Part shown: positions 4,671 through 58,876 of the stretch, piece after piece
Position numbering within the stretch: position 1 is the stretch's first letter
How the letters are laid out: the number at the start of each line of letters is the position of its first letter
DNA from: Clostridia bacterium
Lineage (GTDB): Bacteria; Bacillota; Clostridia; Oscillospirales; CAG-272
DNA: 64,000 nt
Assembly (NCBI GenBank): GCA_017938885.1
Contig: JAGBAS010000093.1
Span: 3,190-67,189, forward strand
Direction of reading: 5' to 3'
Program-made: the position numbers and the translations under genes
Notes under the pieces: model-generated
Database searches by the model: none
The model's input: only the letters and a program-made list of their open reading frames with translations
What the model was told of the DNA's origin: nothing

Positions 4671-7600
4671 TCACTCGGTCAGCACGATCTGATCCCCGTC
4701 ATACGTATACCCGAGCTGATACAGCTCAACGTAGTCAATCTTGAAGCTGTTGGCACGCTCAAAGATGGCGCAGTTGCCTTCTACCGGCACAAGAGCGGTA
4801 TGGCCCTCGGTTGTCAGCACGACATTGCCCTCTGCATTCAAAATCTCGGCGTAGCGGTAGGTCTCTGCCTTCCAGCTTTGGACATCATCACGGCCTATGT
4901 CAGAAAGCTTGACGGTAGCAACCAATTCGCCCTCGACATAGATGATAACGGTATCGCCCTTGTCCTCATAGCGGACAGTTGCACCCTCGTCAAAGGACAC
5001 GCTTTCGGGCAGGGTGAAGGTATAGCCTATGGAGGTAGCCTTCCGTATGCGAGATGTATCCTTCACATGGATAGCAACCTCCAGCGAGTTGCCATAGGGA
5101 TAGAGGAAAATGCCGCTGACACCCAAGTAGGAGGAGGTGTCAAGGTCGCCGTTATCGGGCTCGTACATGGCGGCTTCTGTGTTGTTCAGCTCAACAGGGA
5201 TACGCAGACCGATGGCTGTGCGGTATGCATAACCGGTATTCGCATAACCGCCCGTAATCAAGTGAGTCTCGAAGGCATAGTAACGCAACTCGTTGAGGTA
5301 GCGAATACAACGACCCTTGCTCCACGTACCGCAGATCCAGCCATCCTCCATGGTGAGGTACTCAAGGACCTCTAACCCTAAAGCCTTATCCACATCGGAT
5401 ATGGTGCCGTCAAAGTCTTCACGAAGGATCAAACCCTCCTTCACAGGCTTCTTCCCGGTGTCAATGCAGACCAAGGTCCACTCGCCTTTCAAAGACAGGT
5501 GCGGATCTCCGCCCTTGACCTCGGCATATTCCACACGGATGGCGTGGTAGCCCTCGCTGAGGAGGATGCTTCCCTTGGCGGTTTTGATACCGCTCTTTGC
5601 CTCGGGGTCATAGGTGCCATCGACAACCAGACGTCCGTCGATGAAGAGCTTGGCACCATCGTCATAAGAAAGCGCAAACTCATAGCTCTTAGCCTCGGAA
5701 ACCTGTACGTAGCCTTCGTAGAGCAAGCCTATGTTGGCGGTGTATGGCAATCCCTCGGCGGTCAGGGTCTCCACCGCTTGACTGCCCTCACGGAGACCCT
5801 CGATCAAACGGAAATCGGGCTGGGCGGGGTAATTCTTCACCAGCGGATAGTAGGAAACGATCAGACCCGCCTGCAAGAGTGCCTTGTCCTCGTCCGAAAT
5901 GGTCACGGCGGGCATACCATCAATCACGTTGCCATCGCGGGCAGGAAGGATGGTCTCACCCTTACCCGTGTACCGGATAGCCTGCTCGTAGGCATAGTTA
6001 TTGCGGCGTTCGGGGGCGCTGTCGCCCGTGGTGAACCAGGATTCCAGATCATACACGTCGGTGACGTTGTCCATCCAGTGGAAGTTGACGGTAACACTCT
6101 CCCCTGTCAGACCTAGAAGAGAGCGGGGAATGGTCACGGTGAGCTTGTTGCCCGATGCGGCATACGCCACCGTACCGATCTCCTGCCACACGCCGTCCTT
6201 GTAGGCGCAGAGGGTGGTGACGGTGTCGGATACCACCTCGTAGTTGACAAGGTAGTCGTAGCCCTCCCAGCCCGTGGTCTTGTCGGCGTCGGCATCGATG
6301 AAGAGCAGCATCCAGCTCTTGCTATCCTTGTAGGCGGTCATCTCTTTCGCGGTGCGGACGTAGAAATAGATGCTTCCGCCGTCGGCGGTGATGCGGGATT
6401 CCACGATGTCGTTGCGCCCCGTAGTATTGACGTACTGAATGCGTCCCGTGGTGTCGGAGTGGTCGCGGTGGGTCGTGTCGTTTTCAAAGTCGGTGTAGAC
6501 GGGGGAGATCTTTTCCCAGCTCTCAAAGACAGCGGGATCGGTCTCAGCCATGGTGTGGGCACTCGATGTGCCGTCGGCGGGAAGAACGCCCTTGAAGCGG
6601 CGGATGATGGCGCACATCTGGTAGAAGTAGTTGTCGGTAAATCCGCCCTTCATGGGCTCAATGTCGCGGGAGAACTCGGGGTTGAACTGATCCACAAATC
6701 CCGTATCGGTACCCTTGTCATCGGGGTGGGTGAAATTCTGGGCCACCCATTCGTTCCAACGGGAAATGAGCAGGACCGGGCACTCGGGATACATATCCAT
6801 GAGCATATCAAAGCTCTTTTGAAAACGAATGCCCTGGCCCATGGTATCGGTTTCCAGAAAAGCATTCAGATACTTCTGAGCCGACAGGGCCTCGCTTCGA
6901 CCCTGCCCGTAGTTTGCAAAGCCCGCCGTGCTGATACCGGCACACTCCGTAACTCGCTTTCCATCCTGTCGTACAACGCCAACGTTGGGAGCGTGGGGCT
7001 CAAATCCGTTATCGACCCAGTAATTTTCCCATCTTCCGTTCACGACCCACGACTTGCGGAAGGTGAGCTTATCCTTGTAGTATTCGTCCTCCAGAATCGG
7101 AAATGAGTTGTACGGGGCTCCGCCCACGGGCTTAATGAGTGCCAGAGGCTTCCCCTCCCAGTAAAACCACATATCCTTGTACTTCTCATCGGCCATGAAA
7201 AGCTCATAGAATTTTCCGATATCGCCGTTCCCTTCAACAGCAGAGCCATAGCACCACGGCACCACATAGGGGGTCATAAGACCCTCGGCACGCATTTCCA
7301 GAGAAGTTTCCAGAAAGACCTTCATGGCATCCTCGTAGAGATACCCGTTGGTCATGTCGAAGTAGAGGAAATCCACGCCCGCCATGGCGAAGTAATACAG
7401 ATCGCGGCGGATCTGCCAAACGTCATCGGCGCGATGGTAGCCGGTTTCAGGCTCTGACCACCAACAGAACTGCCAGCGAGGGCTGTAATCGGGGTTGAAT
7501 GGATTTTCGGCCAATGACTTGGAGTTATCATACTGACAGCCCCCCGCTGCTGTCCAAAGGGTGTAGAACAGACCGACGTACTTCCCTTCCTTGGGGAGCC

Positions 7601-8073: not shown

Positions 8074-10161
8074 TTAAACGGATGATTTCAAACAGATCTT
8101 GTACTCGGCAAAGGACAATTTGGGCACAACGCAGTTGATCCTTCCGTTCTTCACGTCCAATGAGACAACGTCATTTCGAATTTGCCTGTCATTCAGTCGG
8201 TTCATCGACAAAAGACTGTCCGCCCGCAAGCCTTCTCCCCGCGCTTCTCCGTCAAGTACAGGAAACGCAGACAGATCGAGCTCCATTTCGCCATCCTCCT
8301 CTGAACGATTCAACAGATTCAGGATCAAAGCGTCTGCTTGTTCATTGATGGAAAGCTGTACCTGAATCGCGTCATTACGAGTCGGGTGATAATTCTCCAA
8401 AACAAGGGTCTGATACGCTTGCGTTTTCGAGAACATCCGCATAATCATGCCCGCCGCTGTGGGGAACGCTGCCTCCTTGGGGGTCTCAATAACGGATGCT
8501 GCGTGGGTATTGGCAAAATTGTTATAATTAATAAAGTCGATGTCCTGACCGTATCTTTGCCACATCATCATGATAGCGGCAGCGTCCAGCGCGTAGGACC
8601 ACTTACTGAACATGAAGCTCTTTCTATGGCTCAGCTGAGAACGAGGTACCATGTTGTAAACGTCCGCACCGTTGAGGGGAAGCCACTCGGTGTTGCAGTA
8701 GCGGATGGAGGTACCGTGTGCCTCGTTGAACTTGCGGATGATCGCAAGCTTTCTTTGGAGATCATGCTCCTCAAAGCCTCGGTCGGCCAGAAAATCAATA
8801 TCCATGCCCGCGATCTCCACCATGCGTTCAAGCGCTTCGTACCTCGAGCAGTAGGAGATCATTCCGATCTTGATGGTGGGATCGATCGCCTTCATGGTAC
8901 GGGAATACAGAACGCAGGCCTCGGCATATTCCTCGTCGGTGAACCAGCGGAACATCTCGTTGTCCATTTCCCAATATTTCACGTTGTAGGGCTTGACCCG
9001 ACCGTTGGCGATACGTGCGCGACCTCCCTCGGTGGTTTCGTCACCGTTGCAATATTCCACCCAAGCCGCCGCCTCGCGAGCCCCTTGCTCCAGATCAGCG
9101 AAATGAGGAAGATCTCTGCCGTGCTTGCCGCCGGGAATGTTGGGATCGTTCGGATCCGAATTCAAATGCTGAGCAGGAACAAACTCATAAAAACGCTTGA
9201 AAGGGTGGTGCATATTCACACAGATCATGGACTCCGCGCCCACTGCTTCCGCATACGTGGCCAGCTCATCGGTACCAATGTCGTTATACTGATAACCGCC
9301 CCAGAAGTATGAATAAGCAGGGGGACGATGTTGACCCACGCCGTCGCGCCAGTTATAAAAGGATGCAAAGCATCCGCCCGGCCAACGGATGACCTTGGGG
9401 GAAACGTACTTGCCTGCCTCCACGGCACTCTTCTTAAAGCCTCGGACGGCATCCGAGGGGGTGAGGGTGAAGTCGTCACAGACCACCGCCGTGTGGGGAG
9501 GCAGGAGCAGGGCGAAGGTATAGCGGCCCTCGGCGGGGACCTCAAAGGTGCTCTGCACGTCGGTGTACTCGATCCCGACGGGGTTCAGAGCACAGGTCAC
9601 GACGGGGTTTTCGGTGGTGCCTTCCTCATAGATGGCAACGGTCAGCCGCTCACTGCCCGTGATCCGCTTGATCTTACCCTTGAAGGTATAGGTGACGTCG
9701 GGGAAGCAATACTTGCCGTCTTGGGCAAGACCGCCAAGGACATCGCTGTGATTCGTCACCTTCATGGCATAATCCCCATGGCAGGCGTCGTCGCAGTAGC
9801 CGATCCTCACGTCAGCGGTGGGAGACTGCTCAATGACGAAGGTAGCTTCGTCGGTGATCTGTTGGTAGCCCGCCACGCCGGGGAAGGCGAACCAGGCGTT
9901 GTGCTCGTAGCCCGAGTGACACCAGTCGAACACCCGCCAATCCGTCTCATAGCGGGAGGTACGGTCTTTTTCATCCTCAAAGAGATCGTACCAGATCTTG
10001 TTAATCATGCGGTAGGGGAAAAAGGGCTCGAAGCTGCGGTTAAAAAACATCTCCGCTGCCATACCCTCCACCTGGATACCATAGCCCAATTCGATAAAAT
10101 TGGAGGACAGTTTTTTGCTAATCGGAGTGGAATGATAAAAACGGGTAGCCTTTACATTCAT
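8074..10161 (-). CDS. GH51-like alpha-L-arabinofuranosidase (cytoplasmic; no signal peptide)
   Basis: VIRWPGGCFASFYNWRDGVGQHRPP and KYWEMDNEMF match the GH51 RWPGG...W.DG.G and NE acid/base motifs. I prefer the ATG at 10161 (RBS gaaagagagg) over the RBS-less GTG at 10194. Confidence 0.7.
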   Translation of the reverse strand: MNVKATRFYHSTPISKKLSSNFIELGYGIQVEGMAAEMFFNRSFEPFFPYRMINKIWYDLFEDEKDRTSRYETDWRVFDWCHSGYEHNAWFAFPGVAGYQQITDEATFVIEQSPTADVRIGYCDDACHGDYAMKVTNHSDVLGGLAQDGKYCFPDVTYTFKGKIKRITGSERLTVAIYEEGTTENPVVTCALNPVGIEYTDVQSTFEVPAEGRYTFALLLPPHTAVVCDDFTLTPSDAVRGFKKSAVEAGKYVSPKVIRWPGGCFASFYNWRDGVGQHRPPAYSYFWGGYQYNDIGTDELATYAEAVGAESMICVNMHHPFKRFYEFVPAQHLNSDPNDPNIPGGKHGRDLPHFADLEQGAREAAAWVEYCNGDETTEGGRARIANGRVKPYNVKYWEMDNEMFRWFTDEEYAEACVLYSRTMKAIDPTIKIGMISYCSRYEALERMVEIAGMDIDFLADRGFEEHDLQRKLAIIRKFNEAHGTSIRYCNTEWLPLNGADVYNMVPRSQLSHRKSFMFSKWSYALDAAAIMMMWQRYGQDIDFINYNNFANTHAASVIETPKEAAFPTAAGMIMRMFSKTQAYQTLVLENYHPTRNDAIQVQLSINEQADALILNLLNRSEEDGEMELDLSAFPVLDGEARGEGLRADSLLSMNRLNDRQIRNDVVSLDVKNGRINCVVPKLSFAEYKICLKSSV

Positions 10162-10215
10162 CGTGACGGCCTCTCTTTCGAATAAAATCTGCACTTAAAA
10201 AATTGCTTTATACAG

Positions 10216-11637
10216 TCATTTTTGATTGAACAACCGATCCAACGACCGATTGGCCGTTTTGGTATTCGCTTGGAGGAATGATGCGTATCGGTCGATGCCA
10301 TCCACACAAAGGTTCGGAACCATATACAGGAGCGGATCCATACCGGCCAGATTTGCTGTGATCATACCAACGTCGCTGACGACAGACTCCCAAATAATAT
10401 CCAACATTTCAGCGTCCTGAGGTGCTTGTGCAATTTTCGAACCCAAAAGATCCTCGTAATATGCCGTCTTCACAGGAGCTGAGTAGTAAGCAAACAGCTC
10501 CATGACGTCGCTTACCATCTCCGTATTCTTTATGGATGACGGAATGATGATGACACCATTCCAATTCATAGCCCTGTACTTCTCCTGCGACTCATCATAC
10601 AAAGGATAGGGCAGCACGCCAAATTCAAAGGACGTATCTCGATACTTAGGCAGATCAGACGATGCCAGCAGATAAAACATCGACGTACCATCCCTGAAAT
10701 CCAAGCCCTCCCGAGACAATCTGGGGCTGGATAGGTAGGCATACTCGGAATGGAACATACCGTGTATTCTCTCAAGAAGATCGTATGTTTTTTCTGAATT
10801 ATTCTCGTATGCAATTCTGAAATAGCCATTGCTGTCCTTATCGACGACTTTAATATCACTGCTGGTTACAAAGGATATAAGCTCGATCCAACCATTTCCG
10901 GCGATCCCGTATGCGCCGTTGGATTCGCTGTTCCCTGTTGTTACCGTCGATGCCATGCCGAAAAACCTATCCAACGTCCATGTTTTGTTGATAACCTCGT
11001 CATAGGGATACTGCATCCGATACGTGTCCATCATCTCTTTATTGAACGTAATGCAATGCACGGAGGTTAAGCATAAGTCGTTATAGCCGACCAAATACTG
11101 ATCCTGAATCATCATCTCGCTCATAAATTCCGTGGCCCAATACGGCGCATCCAAATTGACACTTTCTAATTCTGCAAAGTCATACGCCACATCCGAGGTC
11201 AAAAACGATACAACGCCCTGATAGACGTGAGTCGAGACCATCTGGTATTCGTCGTCGCCGGATTGGACAGTCCGAATGACGTTGCTTGCATAGGACTTCC
11301 AATCGCCCGCATCCACGTCTACGATTTCCACACCGAGCTGCTCTTCGATTTTTAAATTCCGCTCATAAATGGTATCCATCAAGGGATCGCCCCTTTCCTC
11401 CTCGGATGCTATGGCGTGATTTCGGATACTATCAACGCCCGTAATGATAAACTCACTCCCGTAGTTTTTGGTATCAATGTCGGGCTTGAAGCTTGTTTCT
11501 GTTTCTTCAATCTCTTCGTGTGTCGCTGCATGGGTGGTTTCCGAGACATTTCCTGTATCATCCGCGCAGGCAACACAGGAAATCAGCAGGATACCCGCCA
11601 GCAGCAGAGCAAAAAATCGAATGAGTGTTACTTTCAT
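10216..11637 (-). CDS. Extracellular solute-binding lipoprotein (ABC-type sugar-binding family), orphan
   Basis: Lipobox MKVTLIRFFALLLAGILLISCVAC and a GGAGG RBS. Its size (473 aa) and N-terminal pattern (FIITG...YERNLKIEEQLGVEI) are typical of clostridial SBPs. There are no permease or ATPase genes in the window. Confidence 0.6.
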   Translation of the reverse strand: MKVTLIRFFALLLAGILLISCVACADDTGNVSETTHAATHEEIEETETSFKPDIDTKNYGSEFIITGVDSIRNHAIASEEERGDPLMDTIYERNLKIEEQLGVEIVDVDAGDWKSYASNVIRTVQSGDDEYQMVSTHVYQGVVSFLTSDVAYDFAELESVNLDAPYWATEFMSEMMIQDQYLVGYNDLCLTSVHCITFNKEMMDTYRMQYPYDEVINKTWTLDRFFGMASTVTTGNSESNGAYGIAGNGWIELISFVTSSDIKVVDKDSNGYFRIAYENNSEKTYDLLERIHGMFHSEYAYLSSPRLSREGLDFRDGTSMFYLLASSDLPKYRDTSFEFGVLPYPLYDESQEKYRAMNWNGVIIIPSSIKNTEMVSDVMELFAYYSAPVKTAYYEDLLGSKIAQAPQDAEMLDIIWESVVSDVGMITANLAGMDPLLYMVPNLCVDGIDRYASFLQANTKTANRSLDRLFNQK

Positions 11638-49948: not shown

Positions 49949-50288
49949 CACTCCGGCTCCTTCAGATAACCATATCGGCTGTCTTGTGAGGAGGTGCCGG
50001 GCCGTTAACGGCACCGTCCCACGCACCGTCGGGCACAGAGTAACGGCCATTTTTCATTGGTCAGCAGTCCTCGCCTTCTCTGCGCTTCACGGCAAACCCG
50101 GAGCAGCCCTTCCCCGAAGGCTCAGTGTCTGCGACCCAATCACTCGCAGTGTGTCCCTTGGATGGTCTCCGTGTAAGATAAACGGAAAGAGCAAGCCGGG
50201 CGCGATGACCGTGCCGGACTTGCTCTGCGTTGGCTGAGACCGCGTCACGCGGTACCCGGCTCACTCCTTCGGGCTGAGTCCTCTCGGT

Positions 50289-50558
50289 TCAGTCCTCGAT
50301 GATAAGCCCCAGGGCCTTGAGCTTTTCAATGATCGCCGCGACGTCCGCCCGGATGACCGCGGGATCCTCCCCGTAGTCCTCGCTCATGATGCTCACGATG
50401 TCTTCGACGTCCTTACCTTCGGCCAGCATATCCCAGATCTCCCCTCCGGTCGGTGTCAGGACGTACAGTCCGTTCATTTCGCCGGCGGCCTCGCCAACGG
50501 GCACCAGCATATCCTCGTCTGCGACACAGCGATGGATCACGTTTTCATTCACCTTCAT
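50289..50558 (-). CDS. PqqD-family protein (RiPP recognition element)
   Basis: MKVNENVIHRCVADEDMLVPVGEAAGEMNGLYVLTPTGGEIWDMLAEGKDVEDIVSIMSEDYGEDPAVIRADVAAIIEKLKALGLI is a typical PqqD pattern. The start overlaps the rSAM stop by 14 nt. Confidence 0.8.
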   Translation of the reverse strand: MKVNENVIHRCVADEDMLVPVGEAAGEMNGLYVLTPTGGEIWDMLAEGKDVEDIVSIMSEDYGEDPAVIRADVAAIIEKLKALGLIIED

Positions 50559-51681
50559 AACAATCCTCCTTGAGGGGGTATTTTTTCCGAATGGCCTCGG
50601 CCAGCTCATGGGTCATGCGGCAGACGTACTCGGGGCGGATATCGGTCCTCCCCGTTTCGGACAGGCAGGCCGCCGCGCAGAGGGGGCATTGTGCTCGAAG
50701 GGCGCACTCGCGGCAGGCGGCAGGTAGCAGGATCGCGGCGGTATCCCGTCGGGTAGCCTCCCAGGCCTCCGCGAAGCTCATGTGCTTCAAATCATACCCG
50801 TCGGTGGGGAACATCCCGCAGGGGAGCATACGGCCGTCCCACGTGACCCAGAAATTGGTCTTGCCCGCCCGACAGCTCATCCGTTCCCCCTGCCCGTCGG
50901 TACAGTCCTCCGTGGGGTCGTGGGGCTCCGTCGGAACCATATCTCGGATCTGCTCGGGATCCATGTATTGCTCGCGGCAGAGCAGTGTATGAGCGGCGGC
51001 CTCCTCCGCCGTAAAGCGACACGCCGCCTCTCCGTACGCGCCGCCGTTGATCCGGGACGGAGGGAACATATAGGCAGTCCCCTTGACCACCAGGTCATTC
51101 TCCCGCGCGAAGCGGTAAATCTCCGGGACGTCCTTGGCATTGATCGGAGTCACGGAAGCATTCAGGCGGACCTGGATCCCCGCCTCCCGCAGCATACGGA
51201 TATTGGCCGCAACGGTATGAAAGCTTCCCTGCCCGCACAGCGCTCGGTAGGTCTCGTCCGAGGCGCCGTACAAGGAGATGTTCATTCGCAAGGGAGGGTC
51301 CTTTTTGAAGAACGCCACCCAATCGGGATCGATCAGGGAAGCGTTGGTATTGATGGAGATGAGCAGGCCCAGCCTCTTGAGCCCGCTGTAGATCTCCCGA
51401 AAGTCCTTTCGGATCAAGGGCTCCCCTCCCGTCAAAAGGAGGAACACCATGCCGGCGTCACGGGCCACCCGCCCCAGCTCCAGCCATTCCCGGGCCGTCC
51501 ATTCCTCCTCGGCTCGCACGGTCTGGTGAACGTAGCACATACGGCAGTTGAAATTGCATCGGGGCGTCAGCTCAAAATTGCCCGAAAGGGGGATGCCCCT
51601 CGCGGAAGCCTTCGCGTGGATGTATTGGTTCCACAGGGGCTCGATCCCGCGGGGCGTTTTCATTTTTTCATTCATATCCAT
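50545..51681 (-). CDS. Radical SAM / SPASM-domain peptide-modifying enzyme
   Basis: CNFNCRMC (CX3CX2C, residues 42-49). LLLTGGEPLIR. SPASM region: CRAGKTNFWVTWDGRMLPC (C-x12-G-x4-C) and CRECALRAQCPLCAAAC. The start overlaps the stop of the upstream gene. Confidence 0.85.
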   Translation of the reverse strand: MDMNEKMKTPRGIEPLWNQYIHAKASARGIPLSGNFELTPRCNFNCRMCYVHQTVRAEEEWTAREWLELGRVARDAGMVFLLLTGGEPLIRKDFREIYSGLKRLGLLISINTNASLIDPDWVAFFKKDPPLRMNISLYGASDETYRALCGQGSFHTVAANIRMLREAGIQVRLNASVTPINAKDVPEIYRFARENDLVVKGTAYMFPPSRINGGAYGEAACRFTAEEAAAHTLLCREQYMDPEQIRDMVPTEPHDPTEDCTDGQGERMSCRAGKTNFWVTWDGRMLPCGMFPTDGYDLKHMSFAEAWEATRRDTAAILLPAACRECALRAQCPLCAAACLSETGRTDIRPEYVCRMTHELAEAIRKKYPLKEDCYEGE

Positions 51682-52445
51682 TTTTCCAGATCCTCTACGG
51701 CGGAGGGATGGTCGATACAGTCGTAGGAGAAGATCGGCACGTGAGCGATCAGATCCATCAGGAGGGAGAACATACGGTCCACGCTCCTCCCGTCGGTCTC
51801 GTCATAGGAGCACTGGGGCATGAGCCGCGTCAAGGCTTGGGACGGCCTGCACCGCTCCACACAGTTTTCCGCGCCCTGTCCCAGCAGGATGATGGCGCGG
51901 ATCGGAGCGGTAACATTCGCCGTCAGATGGGCGCTTCCCGTTGCCCATGCGCCCGACGCCATATAGATCCCGTCCTTCTTATGGATCATCACCCGATCCT
52001 CGTTGACCACGGTGCTTCCCCGTTCCCTTTCCCAGTAGCGGGCCTGGGTCGATTTCCCCGTCCCGCTGGGCGCGGAAAACAGGATGGCCTTGCCCTCGTG
52101 CAACACGTAGGAGGCATGGAGCAGGCAGGCACCGTGCTCCGGGAGCAGATCCGCCACGCGGGCGGCGATGAACAGGTTGGCCACCGTGATCTCGGGGAGC
52201 AGCTCGGTCCTCATATATACGGTGATCTCGCGTCCGTTCCTTTCGGTGATCACGGGCCAGGCATCCACGGGATGTCGATCGGGACCAAGGGGACGGACGA
52301 GCAGGACGTGATCGGGCAGCTCCGAGGGCTCCGAGGAAAACGCCTCGAAGCGGGCATCCTCCCGCATGGGGACAGGCGTCTCCACCCGAAAGGTCAGATC
52401 TCCGAAGGTATACTGCTTAATGATGGGGGGATGTCTCTCGTTCAT
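51672..52445 (-). CDS. HPr-kinase-C-terminal-like P-loop protein (HprK-related)
   Basis: CLLHASYVLHEGKAILFSAPSGTGKSTQARYWE...VVNEDRVMI has the HprK-like fold pattern with a P-loop. Confidence 0.65.
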   Translation of the reverse strand: MNERHPPIIKQYTFGDLTFRVETPVPMREDARFEAFSSEPSELPDHVLLVRPLGPDRHPVDAWPVITERNGREITVYMRTELLPEITVANLFIAARVADLLPEHGACLLHASYVLHEGKAILFSAPSGTGKSTQARYWERERGSTVVNEDRVMIHKKDGIYMASGAWATGSAHLTANVTAPIRAIILLGQGAENCVERCRPSQALTRLMPQCSYDETDGRSVDRMFSLLMDLIAHVPIFSYDCIDHPSAVEDLEKWI

Positions 52446-52460
52446 AGTTCCATATGGGCG

Positions 52461-52495
52461 AAAAGCACCTCCCCTCTACGTGGGGGAGGGCTTTT
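52461..52495 (-). terminator. Stem-loop with a short U-run between precursor and maturase genes (candidate leaky terminator or attenuator)
   Basis: The minus strand reads AAAAGC-CCTCCCC-cacgtaga-GGGGAGG-t-GC-TTTT. The core is 7 bp of perfect GC-rich stem, extended by 2 bp and A-U pairs. Confidence 0.55.
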
Positions 52496-52506
52496 CTCAG
52501 GTATCA

Positions 52507-52746
52507 TTATGATTCGAATACGTTGTTATCCGCGGTGGGAACATGATAGCAGAACTCGCTGTCAGATGTGATGTCACAGCCTTTCATGAAAATGATGAAA
52601 CCGTTATCGTCATATCCGCAGCTTTGCCCGTCAGAAAAGGTTCCCACGTGACGGCAGCCGGACGATGCGTTGGAACTCAAAGAAAATTCAACGGCCATGA
52701 CGTCAGGCTTGGTATAAACTTTCGTCTTCTTACTGTTGTTCTTCAT
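52507..52746 (-). CDS. Candidate RiPP precursor peptide (79 aa; Lys-rich leader; core with 4 Cys and many Asp/Glu/Ser/Thr)
   Basis: MKNNSKKTKVYTKPDVMAVEFSLSSNASSGCRHVGTFSDGQSCGYDDNGFIIFMKGCDITSDSEFCYHVPTADNNVFES, with Cys at residues 31, 43, 57 and 66. RBS gaggaaagga. It is the first gene of the cassette. Confidence 0.6.
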   Translation of the reverse strand: MKNNSKKTKVYTKPDVMAVEFSLSSNASSGCRHVGTFSDGQSCGYDDNGFIIFMKGCDITSDSEFCYHVPTADNNVFES

Positions 52747-52780: not shown

Positions 52781-55700
52781 TCAAGAGCGCTTACGGCCTA
52801 CGAAAACGTAGGCTGCAAGCATGGCAATCGCAACCAGAGATCCCGTGCCGATCACGGAGCCGCATCCGGCCAGATCCTCGGTCGGTTCCTCCGTCAGGCC
52901 TTCGGTTTCACGCGCACCGTCAGTTTCGACAGGCGCAGGATCCGTATCTGTCACAGGCGCGTTTCCATCGGCAGGTTCGGTCTCGTCCGCGGTCTCGTCC
53001 TCAGCGGTCTGTTCCCCGTCGGGCTGACCCAGGTTGTCAACGGGAGGCTGACCGTCTCCGTCGTCGGGCAGGGGCTCGACTGCGGGGGGAGCGATCTCGG
53101 TCTCATCGCCGTCCACAGGCTTATCCCCGTCGGAAGCACCGCCGTCCGCCTCGGGAGCGCCGGAGCTGTACAGCAGGGCCATGACCTCGATACCCTCCGA
53201 AAGAGTCTCGGGATCCACCACGGGCCGGACCATGACGCCGTCCTGCTCAAAGGTGAACTTGAAGCCCGTGAAGGAGATCACGGAGGAGGTGTCGTGGAAG
53301 TACTCCCGATCGCTGTGGGAGAAGGTGATGACAGGGGTCTCGTAGTAGGCCACCTCACCGTTCTCGTCGGTCACGGGGGTCCAGGTGATGTGGTTCATAG
53401 GATAGAACATATTGGCTGCGCCATGGACGTGGAGGAAGTCGTGGGCACCGTGCTTGATGACGCCGTCGGTACCGACGGCCATCTTCACGCCGATGTGGGT
53501 GGCAGTCGGAATGGCCGTAGCGGTGAGCTTGAAGGAGATGCCCTGGCCCTTGGCGAGATAAAGCTCATTGTTGGGGCCGGGATTCTCGTAATCCTTGATG
53601 CTGACCGTAGCGTCCTTACCGTCGATGAAAACCACACCGGGGAGGGTCTCCTGATCCCGGATCTCACCGATCCCCAGGACCAGATCCTTCATGGTCATGT
53701 AGAAGGGAGCATACTCCTTATCGGCCTTATGGGCATTGTCCGCGGTCTCGTTGCCCTTGGCGGGATCGTAAATGCGGATGGAGTCCAGCACGAAGGTACT
53801 GGTGCCGTCGGGATACAGGTAGTCCACACTCTCCAGGAAGATCACGCTGATCTTCACGGTGTAGGCGGCCTGCTCCAGTCCGCTGAGCTTGATCACAGGG
53901 ACCTGCCATACCGTATCCTCGGAGGAAGCGTTGGGCTGCCAGCCCTCTTCCTCGGAGTAGGTATAGCCGTAGTAGTTGTTGACCGACTTGGAGGCGACCT
54001 TATGGCCATCCTTGTCGTATACCGTCACCAGGATGGTGGCGCCCACGTTATCAGTCAGGGAGATGATATCGAAGCCGGTCCCCGTGAAGGTAAAGGTAGC
54101 GGTGGGAGCGGTCCGGGGATTACCCAGATCGAGGTTCACGGTGACGGCCTTGGCACCGCCGTTACTGAAGGTGGCGCAGGAGGTGTAGGAGGGATCGAAG
54201 CCGTAGACGTTATTGGCGTCGAGGCTGGCGAGATTATTGAAGCCGGGACGGTCCACGCTCTGAGGAGCGTTGGGATCGGCCGTACCCACGTCGGTCCACA
54301 CGCCCAGGGTATCGGTGGCGGCGGAGGAATCCTCAAAGGTGAGGAAGTCCTCCTCAAAGTACATATTGGCGGCGGGGATGACCGTGATGGTACCGTAGTA
54401 GTAGCGACTCTCGTACAGCACCGCATAGGAGAAGATCTCCGGCTCGGTCATGTTGGTGCCCACGCCCTGTCGGAGGGCGTAGCGGATCCCGTTCGGGGTG
54501 ATGGTGGCGGTGCCGAACTTGCCCTCATAGACGGTGCGCAGAGTACCATCCGCGACGAAGGAGGCGGACAGATGAGCCTCGCCGTTGACGCTGGCCGACG
54601 TGGTGTGGGGACCGACGGCGACGATACCGCCCTTGTTGTAGAACATATCGTTCAGAAGGGCCTGGATGTTCACGGGCTGACCGTAGTCGATGACTACCAC
54701 GTCGCTGACGGGCTTGACGGTGTAGACCACGGCGAACCACACGATGGTGTGGGTGTAATCGTAGGCGGGATCGTCCTCCTCCAGCTCGTTGGTGAACTGG
54801 TAGCTGTCGTGACCCGTTACGTAGGTAGAGGAGGTGGGGACGTTGCCCTTACCGATGGTCCAGGCGCTGGCACCCAGAGCGGATCTGACGTGGACGGTAT
54901 AGGTCGCGTCCTTATCGTAGAGCTCGTAGCCCTCGGGCAGATCCTGCGCGGCCAGCTCGGCGGCGTTCAAGGACACCGTGGAGTTGAGCAGGGCATAGAA
55001 GGTGGGGGTGGTGATATTCAGGCGGTTGGCGAAGGAGCCGGTCATGCCCATCTCCTGATTGACCAGGGACAGACCGTTCTCATCTACCAGGTAGAAGGCA
55101 TAGCGGACGGACGCGGCCTGCCACGGGATCTGGGGAGACACGGTCTCGCGGTAGGCATCGTTACCCAGCCAGTTGGTGTAGTACAGGATCGCGCTCTGGT
55201 TGGTATTGTAGGTGCCGGGCTCCAGCTCGCCCTCCATGGAGCCGTCCAGATAGACGTAGTAGGACAGCACCATGTCATGCTGGTTGATGGTACCCATATC
55301 CCAGTAGAAGGACTCGTTGGCCAGCAGGTAGTCCTCGGTGCCGTCCAGATCCGAGTCGATCATCACGGAGTAGTCGTTGGTGTTGTACCAGAAGTGACGG
55401 GCATAGATAACGCCGTTTTGCATGATGTTTCCGCCGAAGATGCTGGAGTATGCCTCGGTACCGTCGGCGTTGAAGGTGACGGTCTCCACCACGGTGCTCA
55501 TTCCGTTACGGGTACCGATCTTATCGTGGGGGATGATACCCGCCTCCACGTCGGCGTGGGTGTACAGACCGTACAGGGTGAACTTGATCTCGGGCAGGAT
55601 GCTGCGGTTCTCGAAGCGGCCCTCGCTGTTCAGGAACCTGTAATCCACCCGGGACATCTGAAGGTCGAACTGCTTGCCCATGGTGTCCACGAAGTAGGCA

Positions 55701-58700
55701 TCGGTGGCGGCGTAGTTGATCTCCTGACCGATCATGTGGAAGGCATTGTGGAGATCGTCGGCGGTGTTGGCCTCGTAGTACAGAAGATCCTTGTTGGAGG
55801 AGATATTGCGAAGGACAGTCCGCATGGTCTCCAGCTCGATCCTGTTATCCTTGGCCAAGCAGAAGCCGATGGAGAACATGGTCGCGCCCAGACCGGGCAA
55901 GGTATAGATGTTCTGCTTGTCGGTAGCCTCCAAATAGCCCTCCAAGCCATTGGTATTCTTACGGACAACGGTGTAGCGCTGCGCGGGATCGCCCTTGATG
56001 GCCTCGGCCATCCAGTGCTTGCCCTCGGGGTTGTAGTAATTCTTGTTGGCGTTCCGATCGAACATGGAGTCGGTCACGGTACCCGTGAGCCAGTTGTTCC
56101 AGTTGGAATTGGAGGACGAGCCGCTGAAGTAGTTGTACTGGTAGGGCGCACCGTCGGACATGAAGATCACGAAGAGGTCGCGGTCCTCATGGGCCTCCTC
56201 ATTCGCCTGCTTCACAGAGGAAGTGATCTGGTAGACCACATCAAAGGCGTAGTCATAGTTGGTACCCGAATGGGTCGTCTGCAGGCGGATGGGCGTTTTG
56301 CCCTCGTCCTTATACAGAACACCGTTGCGCACGTCCAGATCGTGCACGCTGACCAGCGAGTCCGCGGTCATAGTGCCTTTTCCGGTATACACGTTACCGC
56401 CCACGCTGCTCGACGTACCCTGCGTAGAGGCATTCACAAGGTGATCCTTGCTCTCCAGGTAGTAGGGGTAGCCGGAGCCGAGGTAGTTGTTGAAGTCGGC
56501 GATGGAAACACGGATATCCATGGGCTCGCCGTCCTCACCATCTCTTTGCAGCTCGGCGATCAGCTCGGACAAGGACTCGGTGAGGACCTCCTGACGGGAG
56601 ACACCGTTCAGGTAATTGTTTCTCATGGAGCTGGAGGTATCCAGCATGATAATGACGTCAGCGCCTCGCTTCACGGGAACGCCCGTGGCGGACAGCTCGA
56701 CTCTGGCCACGCCCGTGTTGTTGAAGTCGATGGCGGTCGTGCCCTTGTTGACGCGGATGGAGCCCTCGTGGGGGAACTCGGGGTAGTTGTTGACGTAGAC
56801 GTTCAGGGTGTAGCCGGGGATGCGCTGATCGGCGTAGACGATGGTCAGATCCTCATAGACACCGGGCTTGCGGAGGTTGAAGTCACCCTCCAGCATATCC
56901 GTCGTAACGTGCTGACGGGCGGAGGTGCCGTCGGAATAGGTCACGTGCAGGATGGAGCCGGTGTTGGTGTTGTCACTGGAGGCAGAGCCCACCATAGGAT
57001 CGCAGGTGATGGAAGAGATGGCGCGGGCCTTGACGGTGACCACGTACTTGGTGATCTCCACACCGTTGTACCGAATGGACAAGGTGTAGTTTCCTGCCGT
57101 AGTGGGATCCGCGGTGCCCTCGATGGTGTAATCGTGGACGATCTTCTTGTTCGTGCCCTTAGTATCAGTAGCGGTGAAGATGGAGAAGGACTCGCGGATG
57201 ACGTGCTTGAGGGCATCGTAGCTGCCGTATACCCCCGCAGGGATGGTCACGCCCGAGGAGCCCAGGAAGCTGGCGTACAGGGAGGGGGTGGAGGTCGTCT
57301 CCTCAGCCATCAGGTACACGCGGTTGGTTCGGCTTCCGCCGCCCATCACAAAGGTATTGCGGATATAATACTTTTGGTTGCCGGAACCCGTGTACAGACC
57401 GTATTTACTGTCGAGCTTCCAGGTCGTATAATTATCGTTCTTGTTCGTCGTGAAGCTCAGTGCCTGCTTCCTGTCATTTCCCATGAGGTAGTACACGGTG
57501 CCGTCTTCAGCGGTGTGGGTGAATCTGCTGCCGTCGTACGTCCAGATCATGCTGTCCGTAGCCGACTCAATGTAGTTACCGTCGTGGTTGTTCTGAAGAA
57601 CGGTGACGGTCTCCTGCGTCAGCTTATTCTCGCCGAAGGCAATGACCTTGCGGTCGCCCCGGCTGTAGCTGTTCGAGATCAGGTAGCGCTCACCTTTGGT
57701 CAGCGACTGCGAATACCGCCAGATGGAGGTCTCCGAGGAATCCACGTGGATCCAACCGTGATCCACGGTCTCGGGGCCGTACTCGGGAGACTGTACGTTG
57801 TTGCTTACCTTCAGCGAAATGGTCTCGCTATTCTCGTAGATGCGGGCGGAGGGATCGTACATGGTGCGCTCCACCTCGTCCAGACCGTAGTCCGCGCCGT
57901 AGTTGCCCTTGGCCTTCAGATTATGAAGGCCGCTCGCATCGAAGCGGTTGATCTCCACGCGATCCTCATAAATGGCAAAGGTGGTCATGGTCAGGGCAGT
58001 ATCGACACCACTGCCCATGTCCTCGTAGTAGCCGGTAAAGCCGGCGTTCATGTAGGTGAACTTCAGGGTATAGCGATCGTAGCCCGTCTTGGTGCCGTCG
58101 GCAACGGGGAGGACGTTACCGGGGCGCAGGAACACGGAGGAGCCGCCCAGGTAATCATCCCAGCCGTGGGAGTGATCGTGACCGTACAGGTAGATGATAT
58201 CCAGGCCATCCCCTGCCGCGTGGTTGTTGAGCACCTTGATCAGCTTGTCCGCATAGCGGGCATCACCGTCGCGGTAGGTACGCATGGAGTAATGCAGGGG
58301 CAGGTGGGACACCACGAAAATGGGCTTCTTGTAGCCCTCGGCGGCCTTGGCGGACAGGTACTTGTCTAGAGCCTCGGCGGTGGCGGCGACCGTCGCCTCG
58401 TCGGTGTTCTGGTGCATATAGTCCTTCTCGTTGATGACGAACACGCCGTAGTGGTCCGTATCGTTGTTCCCGCTGGGGGACAGGACACCGCTCGACACCA
58501 GTTCGTCGGGGTCGTGGTTGCCCTGAGTGAAGACGTAATCCTCAATGCCCAGTCCGCTTCCCTCCACGGTCTGGGCTAAGGTATCCTTGCCCTGCTCAGA
58601 GGTGTCGTAGTCATAGTCATAGTCGCCCGCGAACAGAAGGCCGTACGCCGAGGGATACTTCTGGCGTATGGCGATCAGGATGGCGTTCACGTTGGCAGAG

Positions 58701-58876
58701 CTCTGCCCGTGACCGTTGGGGCTCTGGAAGTCCGAGCCGGCCACGACGACAATGGGCTCCTCTGCGGCGGAAAGGGCCGCAGAAAGTCCCTCCGCGAAAA
58801 CGCCGAGGGGCAGGACGCCCACGATCATAACGATGGCGAGCATGGCGGATGCGTATCGTAGGAATCTCTTTTTCAT
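52781..58876 (-). CDS. Giant (2031 aa) surface protein: N-terminal metallophosphoesterase, long beta-rich region, vWA domain with MIDAS, acidic tail, C-terminal GCGS-TM-RKRS anchor
   Basis: Signal peptide ...GVFAEG. GSDFQ, FAGDYDY, QGNHD and YGHDHSHGW. vWA: VIIMLDTSSSM (DTSSS at 56627-56641) ...VIFMSDGAPY. The C-terminus is LAGCGSVIGTGSLVAIAMLAAYVFVGRKRS. Confidence 0.85.
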   Translation of the reverse strand: MKKRFLRYASAMLAIVMIVGVLPLGVFAEGLSAALSAAEEPIVVVAGSDFQSPNGHGQSSANVNAILIAIRQKYPSAYGLLFAGDYDYDYDTSEQGKDTLAQTVEGSGLGIEDYVFTQGNHDPDELVSSGVLSPSGNNDTDHYGVFVINEKDYMHQNTDEATVAATAEALDKYLSAKAAEGYKKPIFVVSHLPLHYSMRTYRDGDARYADKLIKVLNNHAAGDGLDIIYLYGHDHSHGWDDYLGGSSVFLRPGNVLPVADGTKTGYDRYTLKFTYMNAGFTGYYEDMGSGVDTALTMTTFAIYEDRVEINRFDASGLHNLKAKGNYGADYGLDEVERTMYDPSARIYENSETISLKVSNNVQSPEYGPETVDHGWIHVDSSETSIWRYSQSLTKGERYLISNSYSRGDRKVIAFGENKLTQETVTVLQNNHDGNYIESATDSMIWTYDGSRFTHTAEDGTVYYLMGNDRKQALSFTTNKNDNYTTWKLDSKYGLYTGSGNQKYYIRNTFVMGGGSRTNRVYLMAEETTSTPSLYASFLGSSGVTIPAGVYGSYDALKHVIRESFSIFTATDTKGTNKKIVHDYTIEGTADPTTAGNYTLSIRYNGVEITKYVVTVKARAISSITCDPMVGSASSDNTNTGSILHVTYSDGTSARQHVTTDMLEGDFNLRKPGVYEDLTIVYADQRIPGYTLNVYVNNYPEFPHEGSIRVNKGTTAIDFNNTGVARVELSATGVPVKRGADVIIMLDTSSSMRNNYLNGVSRQEVLTESLSELIAELQRDGEDGEPMDIRVSIADFNNYLGSGYPYYLESKDHLVNASTQGTSSSVGGNVYTGKGTMTADSLVSVHDLDVRNGVLYKDEGKTPIRLQTTHSGTNYDYAFDVVYQITSSVKQANEEAHEDRDLFVIFMSDGAPYQYNYFSGSSSNSNWNNWLTGTVTDSMFDRNANKNYYNPEGKHWMAEAIKGDPAQRYTVVRKNTNGLEGYLEATDKQNIYTLPGLGATMFSIGFCLAKDNRIELETMRTVLRNISSNKDLLYYEANTADDLHNAFHMIGQEINYAATDAYFVDTMGKQFDLQMSRVDYRFLNSEGRFENRSILPEIKFTLYGLYTHADVEAGIIPHDKIGTRNGMSTVVETVTFNADGTEAYSSIFGGNIMQNGVIYARHFWYNTNDYSVMIDSDLDGTEDYLLANESFYWDMGTINQHDMVLSYYVYLDGSMEGELEPGTYNTNQSAILYYTNWLGNDAYRETVSPQIPWQAASVRYAFYLVDENGLSLVNQEMGMTGSFANRLNITTPTFYALLNSTVSLNAAELAAQDLPEGYELYDKDATYTVHVRSALGASAWTIGKGNVPTSSTYVTGHDSYQFTNELEEDDPAYDYTHTIVWFAVVYTVKPVSDVVVIDYGQPVNIQALLNDMFYNKGGIVAVGPHTTSASVNGEAHLSASFVADGTLRTVYEGKFGTATITPNGIRYALRQGVGTNMTEPEIFSYAVLYESRYYYGTITVIPAANMYFEEDFLTFEDSSAATDTLGVWTDVGTADPNAPQSVDRPGFNNLASLDANNVYGFDPSYTSCATFSNGGAKAVTVNLDLGNPRTAPTATFTFTGTGFDIISLTDNVGATILVTVYDKDGHKVASKSVNNYYGYTYSEEEGWQPNASSEDTVWQVPVIKLSGLEQAAYTVKISVIFLESVDYLYPDGTSTFVLDSIRIYDPAKGNETADNAHKADKEYAPFYMTMKDLVLGIGEIRDQETLPGVVFIDGKDATVSIKDYENPGPNNELYLAKGQGISFKLTATAIPTATHIGVKMAVGTDGVIKHGAHDFLHVHGAANMFYPMNHITWTPVTDENGEVAYYETPVITFSHSDREYFHDTSSVISFTGFKFTFEQDGVMVRPVVDPETLSEGIEVMALLYSSGAPEADGGASDGDKPVDGDETEIAPPAVEPLPDDGDGQPPVDNLGQPDGEQTAEDETADETEPADGNAPVTDTDPAPVETDGARETEGLTEEPTEDLAGCGSVIGTGSLVAIAMLAAYVFVGRKRS

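Follow-up and report, generated by a model that had tools for sequence, protein, structure and literature searches.

The precursor gene and its neighbours

The window, a 64,000-nt stretch of a Clostridia bacterium contig (JAGBAS010000093.1, assembly GCA_017938885.1), carries on its minus strand a gene for a giant surface protein, a 79-residue reading frame, a hairpin and three genes for a putative modification pathway (Table 1). Translation of the small reading frame, P0001, gives MKNNSKKTKVYTKPDVMAVEFSLSSNASSGCRHVGTFSDGQSCGYDDNGFIIFMKGCDITSDSEFCYHVPTADNNVFES, with Cys at residues 31, 43, 57 and 66 at spacings of 12, 14 and 9, and with the strings SDGQSC, GYDDNG and CDITSDSEFC, all as the original prediction had read them from the DNA. 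That prediction had also taken the frame for a precursor gene, and its relatives support this view. A word-indexed search returned 13 relatives, 11 of them at 70-94% identity, and a profile search of 1.84 billion cluster representatives returned 710 proteins at E <= 1e-3, including 115 at E <= 1e-10. Among the matches listed, nearly all are 73-95 residues long. When the gene was compared with three relatives, changes fell mostly at third codon positions (33, 41 and 45, versus 6-15 at positions 1 and 2), and synonymous codon changes outnumbered non-synonymous ones. Together, the homologues, the large family and the third-position bias argue that P0001 is a genuine, selected precursor-type gene.

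Table 1. Features of the locus, with positions numbered along the window
Feature	Positions	Strand	Basis or remark
Giant surface-protein gene (2031 aa)	52781..58876	minus	ends 35 nt before the precursor ATG
Precursor peptide gene P0001 (79 aa + stop)	52507..52746	minus	translation, homologues, family, third-position bias
Leader motif Y11-T-K-P-D-V16 (YxKPx[IV]), putative RRE-binding site	52699..52716	minus	conservation in 162 members
Cys-bearing core	52549..52656	minus	Cys codons 52656-52654, 52620-52618, 52578-52576, 52551-52549
C-terminal motif C66-Y-H-V-P...N-x-F-x-S79	52510..52551	minus	conservation in 162 members
Intrinsic-terminator-like hairpin GAAAAGCCCUCCCC/loop/GGGGAGGUGCUUUUC	52460..52496	minus	folding, scan, equivalents in 16 loci
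ScmC/HprK-like P-loop kinase-fold protein P0002 (257 aa)	51672..52445	minus	NCBIfam, Pfam of homologues, profile, AF2 fold
Radical SAM/SPASM enzyme P0003 (378 aa)	50545..51681	minus	Pfam; overlaps the kinase-like gene by 10 nt
Discrete PqqD-type RRE (89 aa from M18)	50289..50558	minus	Pfam PqqD 4.8e-16
Candidate operon-end terminator (stem AGAGCAAGUCCGG.../...CCGGCUUGCUCU, then UUCCGUUUAUCUU)	50188..50226	minus	fold

The family has gone without a name. Every named cluster member examined is labelled 'hypothetical protein', and neither Pfam nor NCBIfam holds a peptide model for the precursor. The hosts given in the named records are Acutalibacteraceae, Candidatus Fimenecus and other uncultured Clostridia, several of them from ruminant-gut samples. 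One family match of 457 aa, P0052, carries the precursor domain at residues 380-457, and may be either a gene call that fuses the end of the giant protein with the peptide or a real fusion. An AlphaFold2 (AF2) model of the precursor, built from a 150-sequence alignment, was predicted to be disordered (mean pLDDT 59, pTM 0.20), and its sole secondary structure was a short beta-hairpin at residues 44-53. This low confidence led us to reject a folded mini-protein, and a disordered chain agrees better with a flexible substrate for enzymes than with a mini-protein folded around disulfides.

Conserved residues of the peptide

The original prediction had proposed an alignment of homologues as a test of which residues are invariant, and we drew up a conservation map from 162 family members. 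The leader has the consensus MKKxYxKPxIxFExFxLS(T/S)xIA, in which Y11 is conserved in 100% of members, K13 in 91%, P14 in 99%, I/V16 in 94% and F21 in 98%. Discrete RREs of lasso peptides and linear polyphosphorylated peptides (LPPs) bind the motif [Y/W]xxPx[L/V/I/F/A] (PMC13381572), a pattern into which the YxKPx[IV] of the precursor leader falls. In the core the four Cys proved to be nearly invariant (C31 100%, C43 98%, C57 99% and C66 100%), F53 is kept in 93%, and exactly four Cys occur in 140 of the 162 members. Non-conserved Cys positions, which the original prediction had named as grounds for its refutation, are thus not what the homologues show. The tail is similarly constrained, with Y67 at 99%, H68 at 87%, P70 at 97%, F77 at 98% and the terminal S79 at 99%. 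Among the four Cys, C66 is the only one with a fixed neighbourhood (Y67, H68 and P70). The acidic and hydroxyl residues near the Cys, which had been put forward as the acceptors of Cys cross-links, did not hold up in this comparison: the residue found in the window is matched in 20% of members at D39, 17% at D46, 25% at D47, 19% at D58, 11% at T60, 15% at D62 and 9% at E64.

Downstream enzyme genes

The first gene downstream of the hairpin encodes P0002, which matched the NCBIfam models HprK_rel_B (1.2e-7) and ScmC (6e-5), both under the curated cut-offs, with HprK_rel_A as a further weak match; homologues of P0002 carry the precomputed Pfam annotation PF27840 (ScmC). A 10-sequence profile of the protein aligned to the Lactobacillus casei HPr kinase structure 1JB1 with an E-value of 0.004, placing the catalytic His, the P-loop Lys and the D-R pair in register. 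H110, K131 and D150 are invariant, and the first Asp of the His-Lys-Asp-Asp motif is replaced by Glu or Gly (N-[EG]-D-R). The AF2 model (pLDDT 90) has a fold that matches PEP carboxykinases (PEPCK) and HprK/P.

P0003 matched Pfam Radical_SAM at 8.9e-26 and SPASM at 0.0037, and it carries a CNFNCRMC motif and a C-terminal Cys cluster. Its closest sequence in the PDB is SkfB (2e-11). Its match to the model of the sactipeptide maturase StsB is full-length and weak, and the protein lies far under all the NCBIfam cut-offs for peptide maturases (76 bits vs 625 for StsB, 54 vs 300 for SkfB and 47 vs 850 for AlbA). For the third protein, the best NCBIfam matches were lasso PqqD chaperones, and a PqqD-type RRE is also encoded in related loci. 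The longest open reading frame of this gene reaches 50609 (106 aa), where it would overlap the radical SAM gene by 65 nt. As the homologues are 89-90 aa long, the true start is probably the ATG at 50558 (M18), which leaves an overlap of 14 nt.

The cassette of the window contains neither a lasso macrolactam cyclase (C) nor a B2 leader peptidase, and it encodes no protease or exporter. Several related loci depart from its layout. An extra gene of about 230-300 aa, without a Pfam match and with an N-terminus that is hydrophobic by eye, lies between the hairpin and the kinase-like gene in most distant loci and in L031 and L032 (for instance, L019 6302-6973 and L024 6316-7005); the clade of the window has no such gene. 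In L019 the PqqD gene is followed by an ABC exporter (9231-10955; ABC_membrane and ABC_tran), and L032, read as its reverse complement, has an unannotated 618-aa open reading frame at the equivalent position (4972-6828). L022 and L023 show a reduced layout in which the radical SAM gene (6307-7452) comes straight after the hairpin of the precursor, with no adjoining kinase-like or PqqD gene, and their peptide ends in ...NVFES. The kinase-like gene is absent beside the precursor in L022/L023 and L028, yet the terminal Ser persists.

The upstream giant surface-protein gene

We compared 16 distinct loci: the window; L009, L012 and L015, which stand for contig families with precursor identities of 70-82%; ten species-level genomes among L018-L030, at 33-41%; and L031 and L032, two copies in one congeneric genome. 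In 15 of the 16, a giant gene on the same strand lies directly upstream of the precursor. This upstream gene fills the available sequence, extending to at least 1,286 aa in 14 loci and to 717 aa in L031, and in six distant loci its stop codon overlaps the precursor start as ATGA. The encoded proteins are homologous to that of the window, at 31% identity over 1246 residues (E = 6e-114), 33% (6e-77) and 35% (9e-39), in alignments that span 320 to 1246 residues at identities of 31-35%. A search at a threshold of at least 9/12 consensus matches gave no promoter at the 3' end of the giant gene or ahead of the precursor in the window, L009 or L015. On this layout the precursor appears not to be promoter-proximal and instead to be transcriptionally fused to the giant surface-protein gene, a point that the original prediction had missed. 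Since these two genes form a tight pair with no promoter between them, the hairpin would separate two structural genes from the enzymes.

The giant proteins differ in their C-terminal ends. In the clade of the window, the tail (window 52781-52870, minus strand; also L009, L012, L015 and L031) has a G-C-x-[SA] motif, a hydrophobic helix and RKR, and resembles a C-terminal sorting signal. In distant loci the tail is instead amphipathic, as in SIFSRIIEFIKKIINFIRGLFA.

A hairpin follows the precursor gene

The hairpin RNA, GAAAAGCCCUCCCC-CACGUAGA-GGGGAGGUGCUUUUC, begins 11 nt past the precursor stop codon and combines a GC stem with an A-tract/U-tract extension. It lies in the 61-nt gap (52506-52446) that separates the precursor from the next gene, which starts at 52445. 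The GC-rich CCUCCCC/GGGGAGG core and the roughly four U that had been described for this gap were confirmed: the U-tract has exactly four U, at 52464-52461, and the hairpin ends in CUUUUC, with UUUU followed by CGCCC. These four U are enclosed in the extended stem, which a G-C pair closes; by textbook standards, such a U4 tract would terminate poorly. For the 73-nt intergenic RNA the folding energy is -27.7 kcal/mol, compared with -14.3 ± 2.9 kcal/mol for 200 dinucleotide shuffles, of which none folded as well (z = -4.6). The hairpin was kept when folded in a 200-nt context, and no competing antiterminator was evident in this 201-nt fold. A consensus scan called it terminator-like on both strands. 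The sequence occurs once in the window and once in the 3.03-Mb genome and matches no Rfam family, and we therefore rejected a repeat element or a known RNA family as its identity. A weak pairing that encloses the hairpin (52440-52512, minus strand) can also form between the bases around the precursor stop (UCAUAAUGAUA) and the beginning of the kinase-like gene (UAUGGAACUAUGA); it was seen in the window only, and not in L009.

The layout of precursor, hairpin and downstream gene that had been proposed for the window recurs in relatives. A hairpin of -15.5 to -27.9 kcal/mol follows the precursor in 16/16 loci, a count that overstates independence because the loci are related. It starts 3-11 nt past the stop codon, or 31 nt past it in L032. 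Its stems belong to at least seven unrelated types (GCCCUCCC, CAGAGCCUGUCUU, GCCGAGUCACC, GCCGUAUC, GGGUGCGGUG, CCUGCCUG and CCGACGGU); this evidence comes from independent folding of each locus, as MAFFT placed the divergent stems badly. In 13 of the 16 loci, the 60 nt that follow the stop fold more stably than 98% or more of 300 segments of this length drawn at random from that locus. The hairpin is also kept whichever gene comes next: the kinase-like gene in the window clade, in most distant loci a gene whose product of about 230 aa is hydrophobic at its N-terminus, and in L022 the gene of the radical SAM enzyme. The position of the hairpin is thus conserved despite the change in its sequence. 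In the relatives its U-tract is typically 4-6 U long, which suggests leakiness, and often pairs with an A-tract upstream; the strong stem of L018 has no U-tract. When internal terminators were set against those at operon ends, the terminal hairpins were heterogeneous, with uncertain cluster ends. L015 has two tandem hairpins past the precursor in a 142-nt spacer (5650-5791), one of them new and the other homologous to that of the window.

Termination and read-through

In 11 of the 12 loci with an assigned next gene, the next start codon lies 54-83 nt past the precursor stop, the exception being L015 (142 nt), and about 15-35 nt separate the hairpin from that start codon. We found no sigma-70-like promoter in this interval; the sole promoter-like match in the region, at 52572-52543, lies upstream of the hairpin. 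Successive enzyme genes overlap, by 10 nt and by 14 nt. Since these genes follow closely, overlap and have no promoter of their own, transcription would reach them only through the hairpin, and read-through would be needed. A spacing of 54-83 nt leaves no room for a promoter, so the hairpin most likely acts as a partial terminator or a 3' stabiliser.

We favour an arrangement in which the hairpin is a weak intrinsic terminator. Transcription would enter from the upstream giant surface-protein gene, most transcripts would end, or be stabilised, at the hairpin, and a minority would read through into the three overlapping enzyme genes, providing more template for the giant protein and the peptide than for the catalysts. 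The regulatory part of this reading, a leaky hairpin after the precursor, appears well supported by comparative anatomy. We consider it probable that the explanation as a whole is correct, namely a precursor of an RRE/radical SAM/HprK-like pathway followed by a weak terminator that would give more structural than enzyme template; the same degree of confidence applies to the precursor being leader-dependent and belonging to a large family, so far without a name, of gut and rumen Clostridia.

The same stem could instead be a 3' exonuclease barrier or processing landmark that causes no termination, in which case the part carrying the giant gene and the peptide would be stabilised after cleavage of a full-length transcript, and precursor excess would arise from differential decay. 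The window hairpin, with just four U enclosed in an extended stem, and L018, with its strong stem lacking a U-tract, are consistent with this possibility, and transcript stability contributes to the excess of the mccA transcript too (PMC4231749). However, most loci have 4-6 U straight after a GC stem, together with an upstream A-tract, which is the canonical form of an intrinsic terminator, and termination and stabilisation are not mutually exclusive. We therefore regard stabilisation with no termination at all as unlikely. Efficient termination, with the hairpin closing an operon of giant gene and peptide and the enzyme genes forming a separate unit that is either driven from an unrecognised promoter or hardly expressed, would agree with the terminator-like call on both strands and with the tight, conserved pairing of the giant gene and the peptide. 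It is quite improbable given the 15-35 nt without a promoter-like site that lead to the next start and the position of the only such match on the far side of the hairpin, and the enzyme genes stay beside the precursor across distant loci.

The weak-terminator arrangement has a counterpart in the microcin C operon, where an intrinsic terminator between mccA and mccB yields short and long transcripts at a ratio of about 20:1 through an estimated 65% termination together with transcript stabilisation (Zukher et al. 2014, PMC4231749). In both cases a small precursor gene is immediately followed by the hairpin, beyond which lie maturation genes on the same strand that lack their own promoter. In mccA-mccB this arrangement gives an abundant short transcript and a minor read-through transcript, as we would predict for the present locus. 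The precursor studied here also differs in following a 6-kb giant gene, rather than being promoter-proximal, and its host is a Gram-positive anaerobe. Similar inverted repeats follow the structural genes of lantibiotics and subtilosin.

Predicted maturation of the peptide

In the maturation scheme that we propose, the discrete PqqD-type recognition protein would dock at the YxKPx[IV] leader motif, the radical SAM/SPASM enzyme would probably act on the four invariant Cys, and the HprK-like kinase-fold protein would probably act on the CYHxP...F-x-S tail, with its invariant terminal Ser. HprK-like kinases with such substrates are known. PadeK, ThcoK, SyanK and PsmK phosphorylate the hydroxyl of an 'extremely conserved' C-terminal Ser in lasso precursors with YxxP leaders, before cyclisation (PMC9266682), and in linear polyphosphorylated peptides, which have YxxPxV in the leader, LppK adds a phosphate to Ser3 of the core (PMC13381572). 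The window cassette shares with the paeninodin-type lasso systems (PadeK, ThcoK, SyanK, PsmK) and with LPPs (LppK/LppB) an HprK-like kinase-fold enzyme, a discrete PqqD-type RRE, a YxxPx[VIL] leader and a near-invariant C-terminal Ser (PMC9266682, PMC13381572). As the YxKP leader, the discrete PqqD and the 99% terminal Ser are those of HprK-like RiPP kinase systems, we consider that the kinase-like protein most likely serves to phosphorylate Ser79. Unlike those systems, the cassette has no lasso cyclase, B2 protease or SpI peptidase, and it adds a radical SAM/SPASM enzyme and four invariant Cys. Kinase activity is predicted here, and in contrast to PadeK and LppK, the His-Lys-Asp-Asp motif has Glu or Gly in place of its first Asp.

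Given the resemblance of P0003 to SkfB and StsB, it is plausible that the radical SAM enzyme forms thioethers from the four Cys, with no conserved acceptor to name. A Cys-bearing precursor together with a SPASM radical SAM enzyme is what the locus has in common with sactipeptide and ranthipeptide systems (SkfB/SkfA, StsB and AlbA; CteB/SCIFF and PapB). It differs from them in that its RRE is a stand-alone protein and not an N-terminal domain, the Cys spacings are wide (12, 14 and 9) with no fixed acceptor positions, no family cut-off is reached and a kinase-like partner is present. The specific chemistry that had been suggested follows ranthipeptides and QhpC: the radical SAM enzyme would join the sulfur of every Cys to a nearby Asp, Glu, Ser or Thr, at a carbon other than the alpha carbon. 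This chemistry would suit the four invariant Cys and an enzyme whose closest solved relative is the thioether-forming SkfB and which matches StsB weakly over its full length. We find it highly doubtful, as the named Asp, Glu and Thr match the window residue in just 9-25% of members, a fixed neighbourhood exists at C66 only, and P0003 falls under every ranthipeptide and sactipeptide family cut-off. It is more doubtful still that the 79-aa product serves the giant surface protein as a small partner or subunit, its Cys forming disulfides or a metal site, while the three enzymes act on another target: strict pairing with the giant gene, ATGA overlaps in distant loci and a cassette without protease or exporter would fit, but no signal peptide is evident by eye in the precursor, disorder is predicted even with a deep alignment, and the YxKP leader is of the kind bound by PqqD-type RREs, one of which the cassette encodes.

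The trio of an HprK-like ScmC, a PqqD-like protein and a radical SAM/SPASM enzyme also recalls the SynChlorMet (SCM) cassette, which was defined in silico as NCBIfam TIGR04248-04251 (ScmC, ScmD, ScmE and ScmF). The window proteins lie far under the equivalog cut-offs of that cassette (22.5/125 bits for ScmC, 16.4/100 for ScmD and 77.1/400 for ScmE/F). Further differences are that the window has a single radical SAM gene where the SCM cassette has two, and that it has a defined precursor with four Cys and a giant protein as partner. A literature search found no paper on the combination of HprK-like, PqqD and radical SAM/SPASM proteins in the window cassette. On its gene content, the pathway appears to be an undescribed variant of RRE-dependent RiPP systems, in which a radical SAM enzyme and an HprK-like kinase would act on a Ser-terminated four-Cys peptide that is tied to a giant adhesin.

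Implications for gut and rumen Clostridia

As a regulatory device, the hairpin is an ordinary, textbook way to obtain more substrate than enzyme, and it adds little new biology in itself. Its value is as comparative evidence that the 79-aa open reading frame is the structural product of a widespread, unnamed peptide-modification pathway of gut and rumen Clostridia. This pathway would join a radical SAM/SPASM enzyme, an HprK-like kinase and a lasso-type recognition protein, and it would have a transcriptional tie to a giant cell-surface protein. The conservation map names the first residues to mutate, namely the four Cys, F53, the CYHxP motif and the terminal Ser; the Asp, Glu and Thr residues are poor candidates.

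A further possibility, which we offer tentatively and hold to be rather unlikely, is that the four-Cys peptide is an obligate partner of the giant vWA surface protein and is translated together with it, in keeping with their conserved adjacency and the ATGA overlaps in distant lineages. The hairpin would split one long operon into structural genes with high output and enzyme genes with low output. After cross-linking by the radical SAM enzyme and phosphorylation of its terminal Ser by the HprK-like kinase, the peptide would work together with the surface protein or act upon it, for instance as an accessory that is bound tightly or attached covalently. If this is true, it would be a role for a RiPP-type peptide that has not been described so far.
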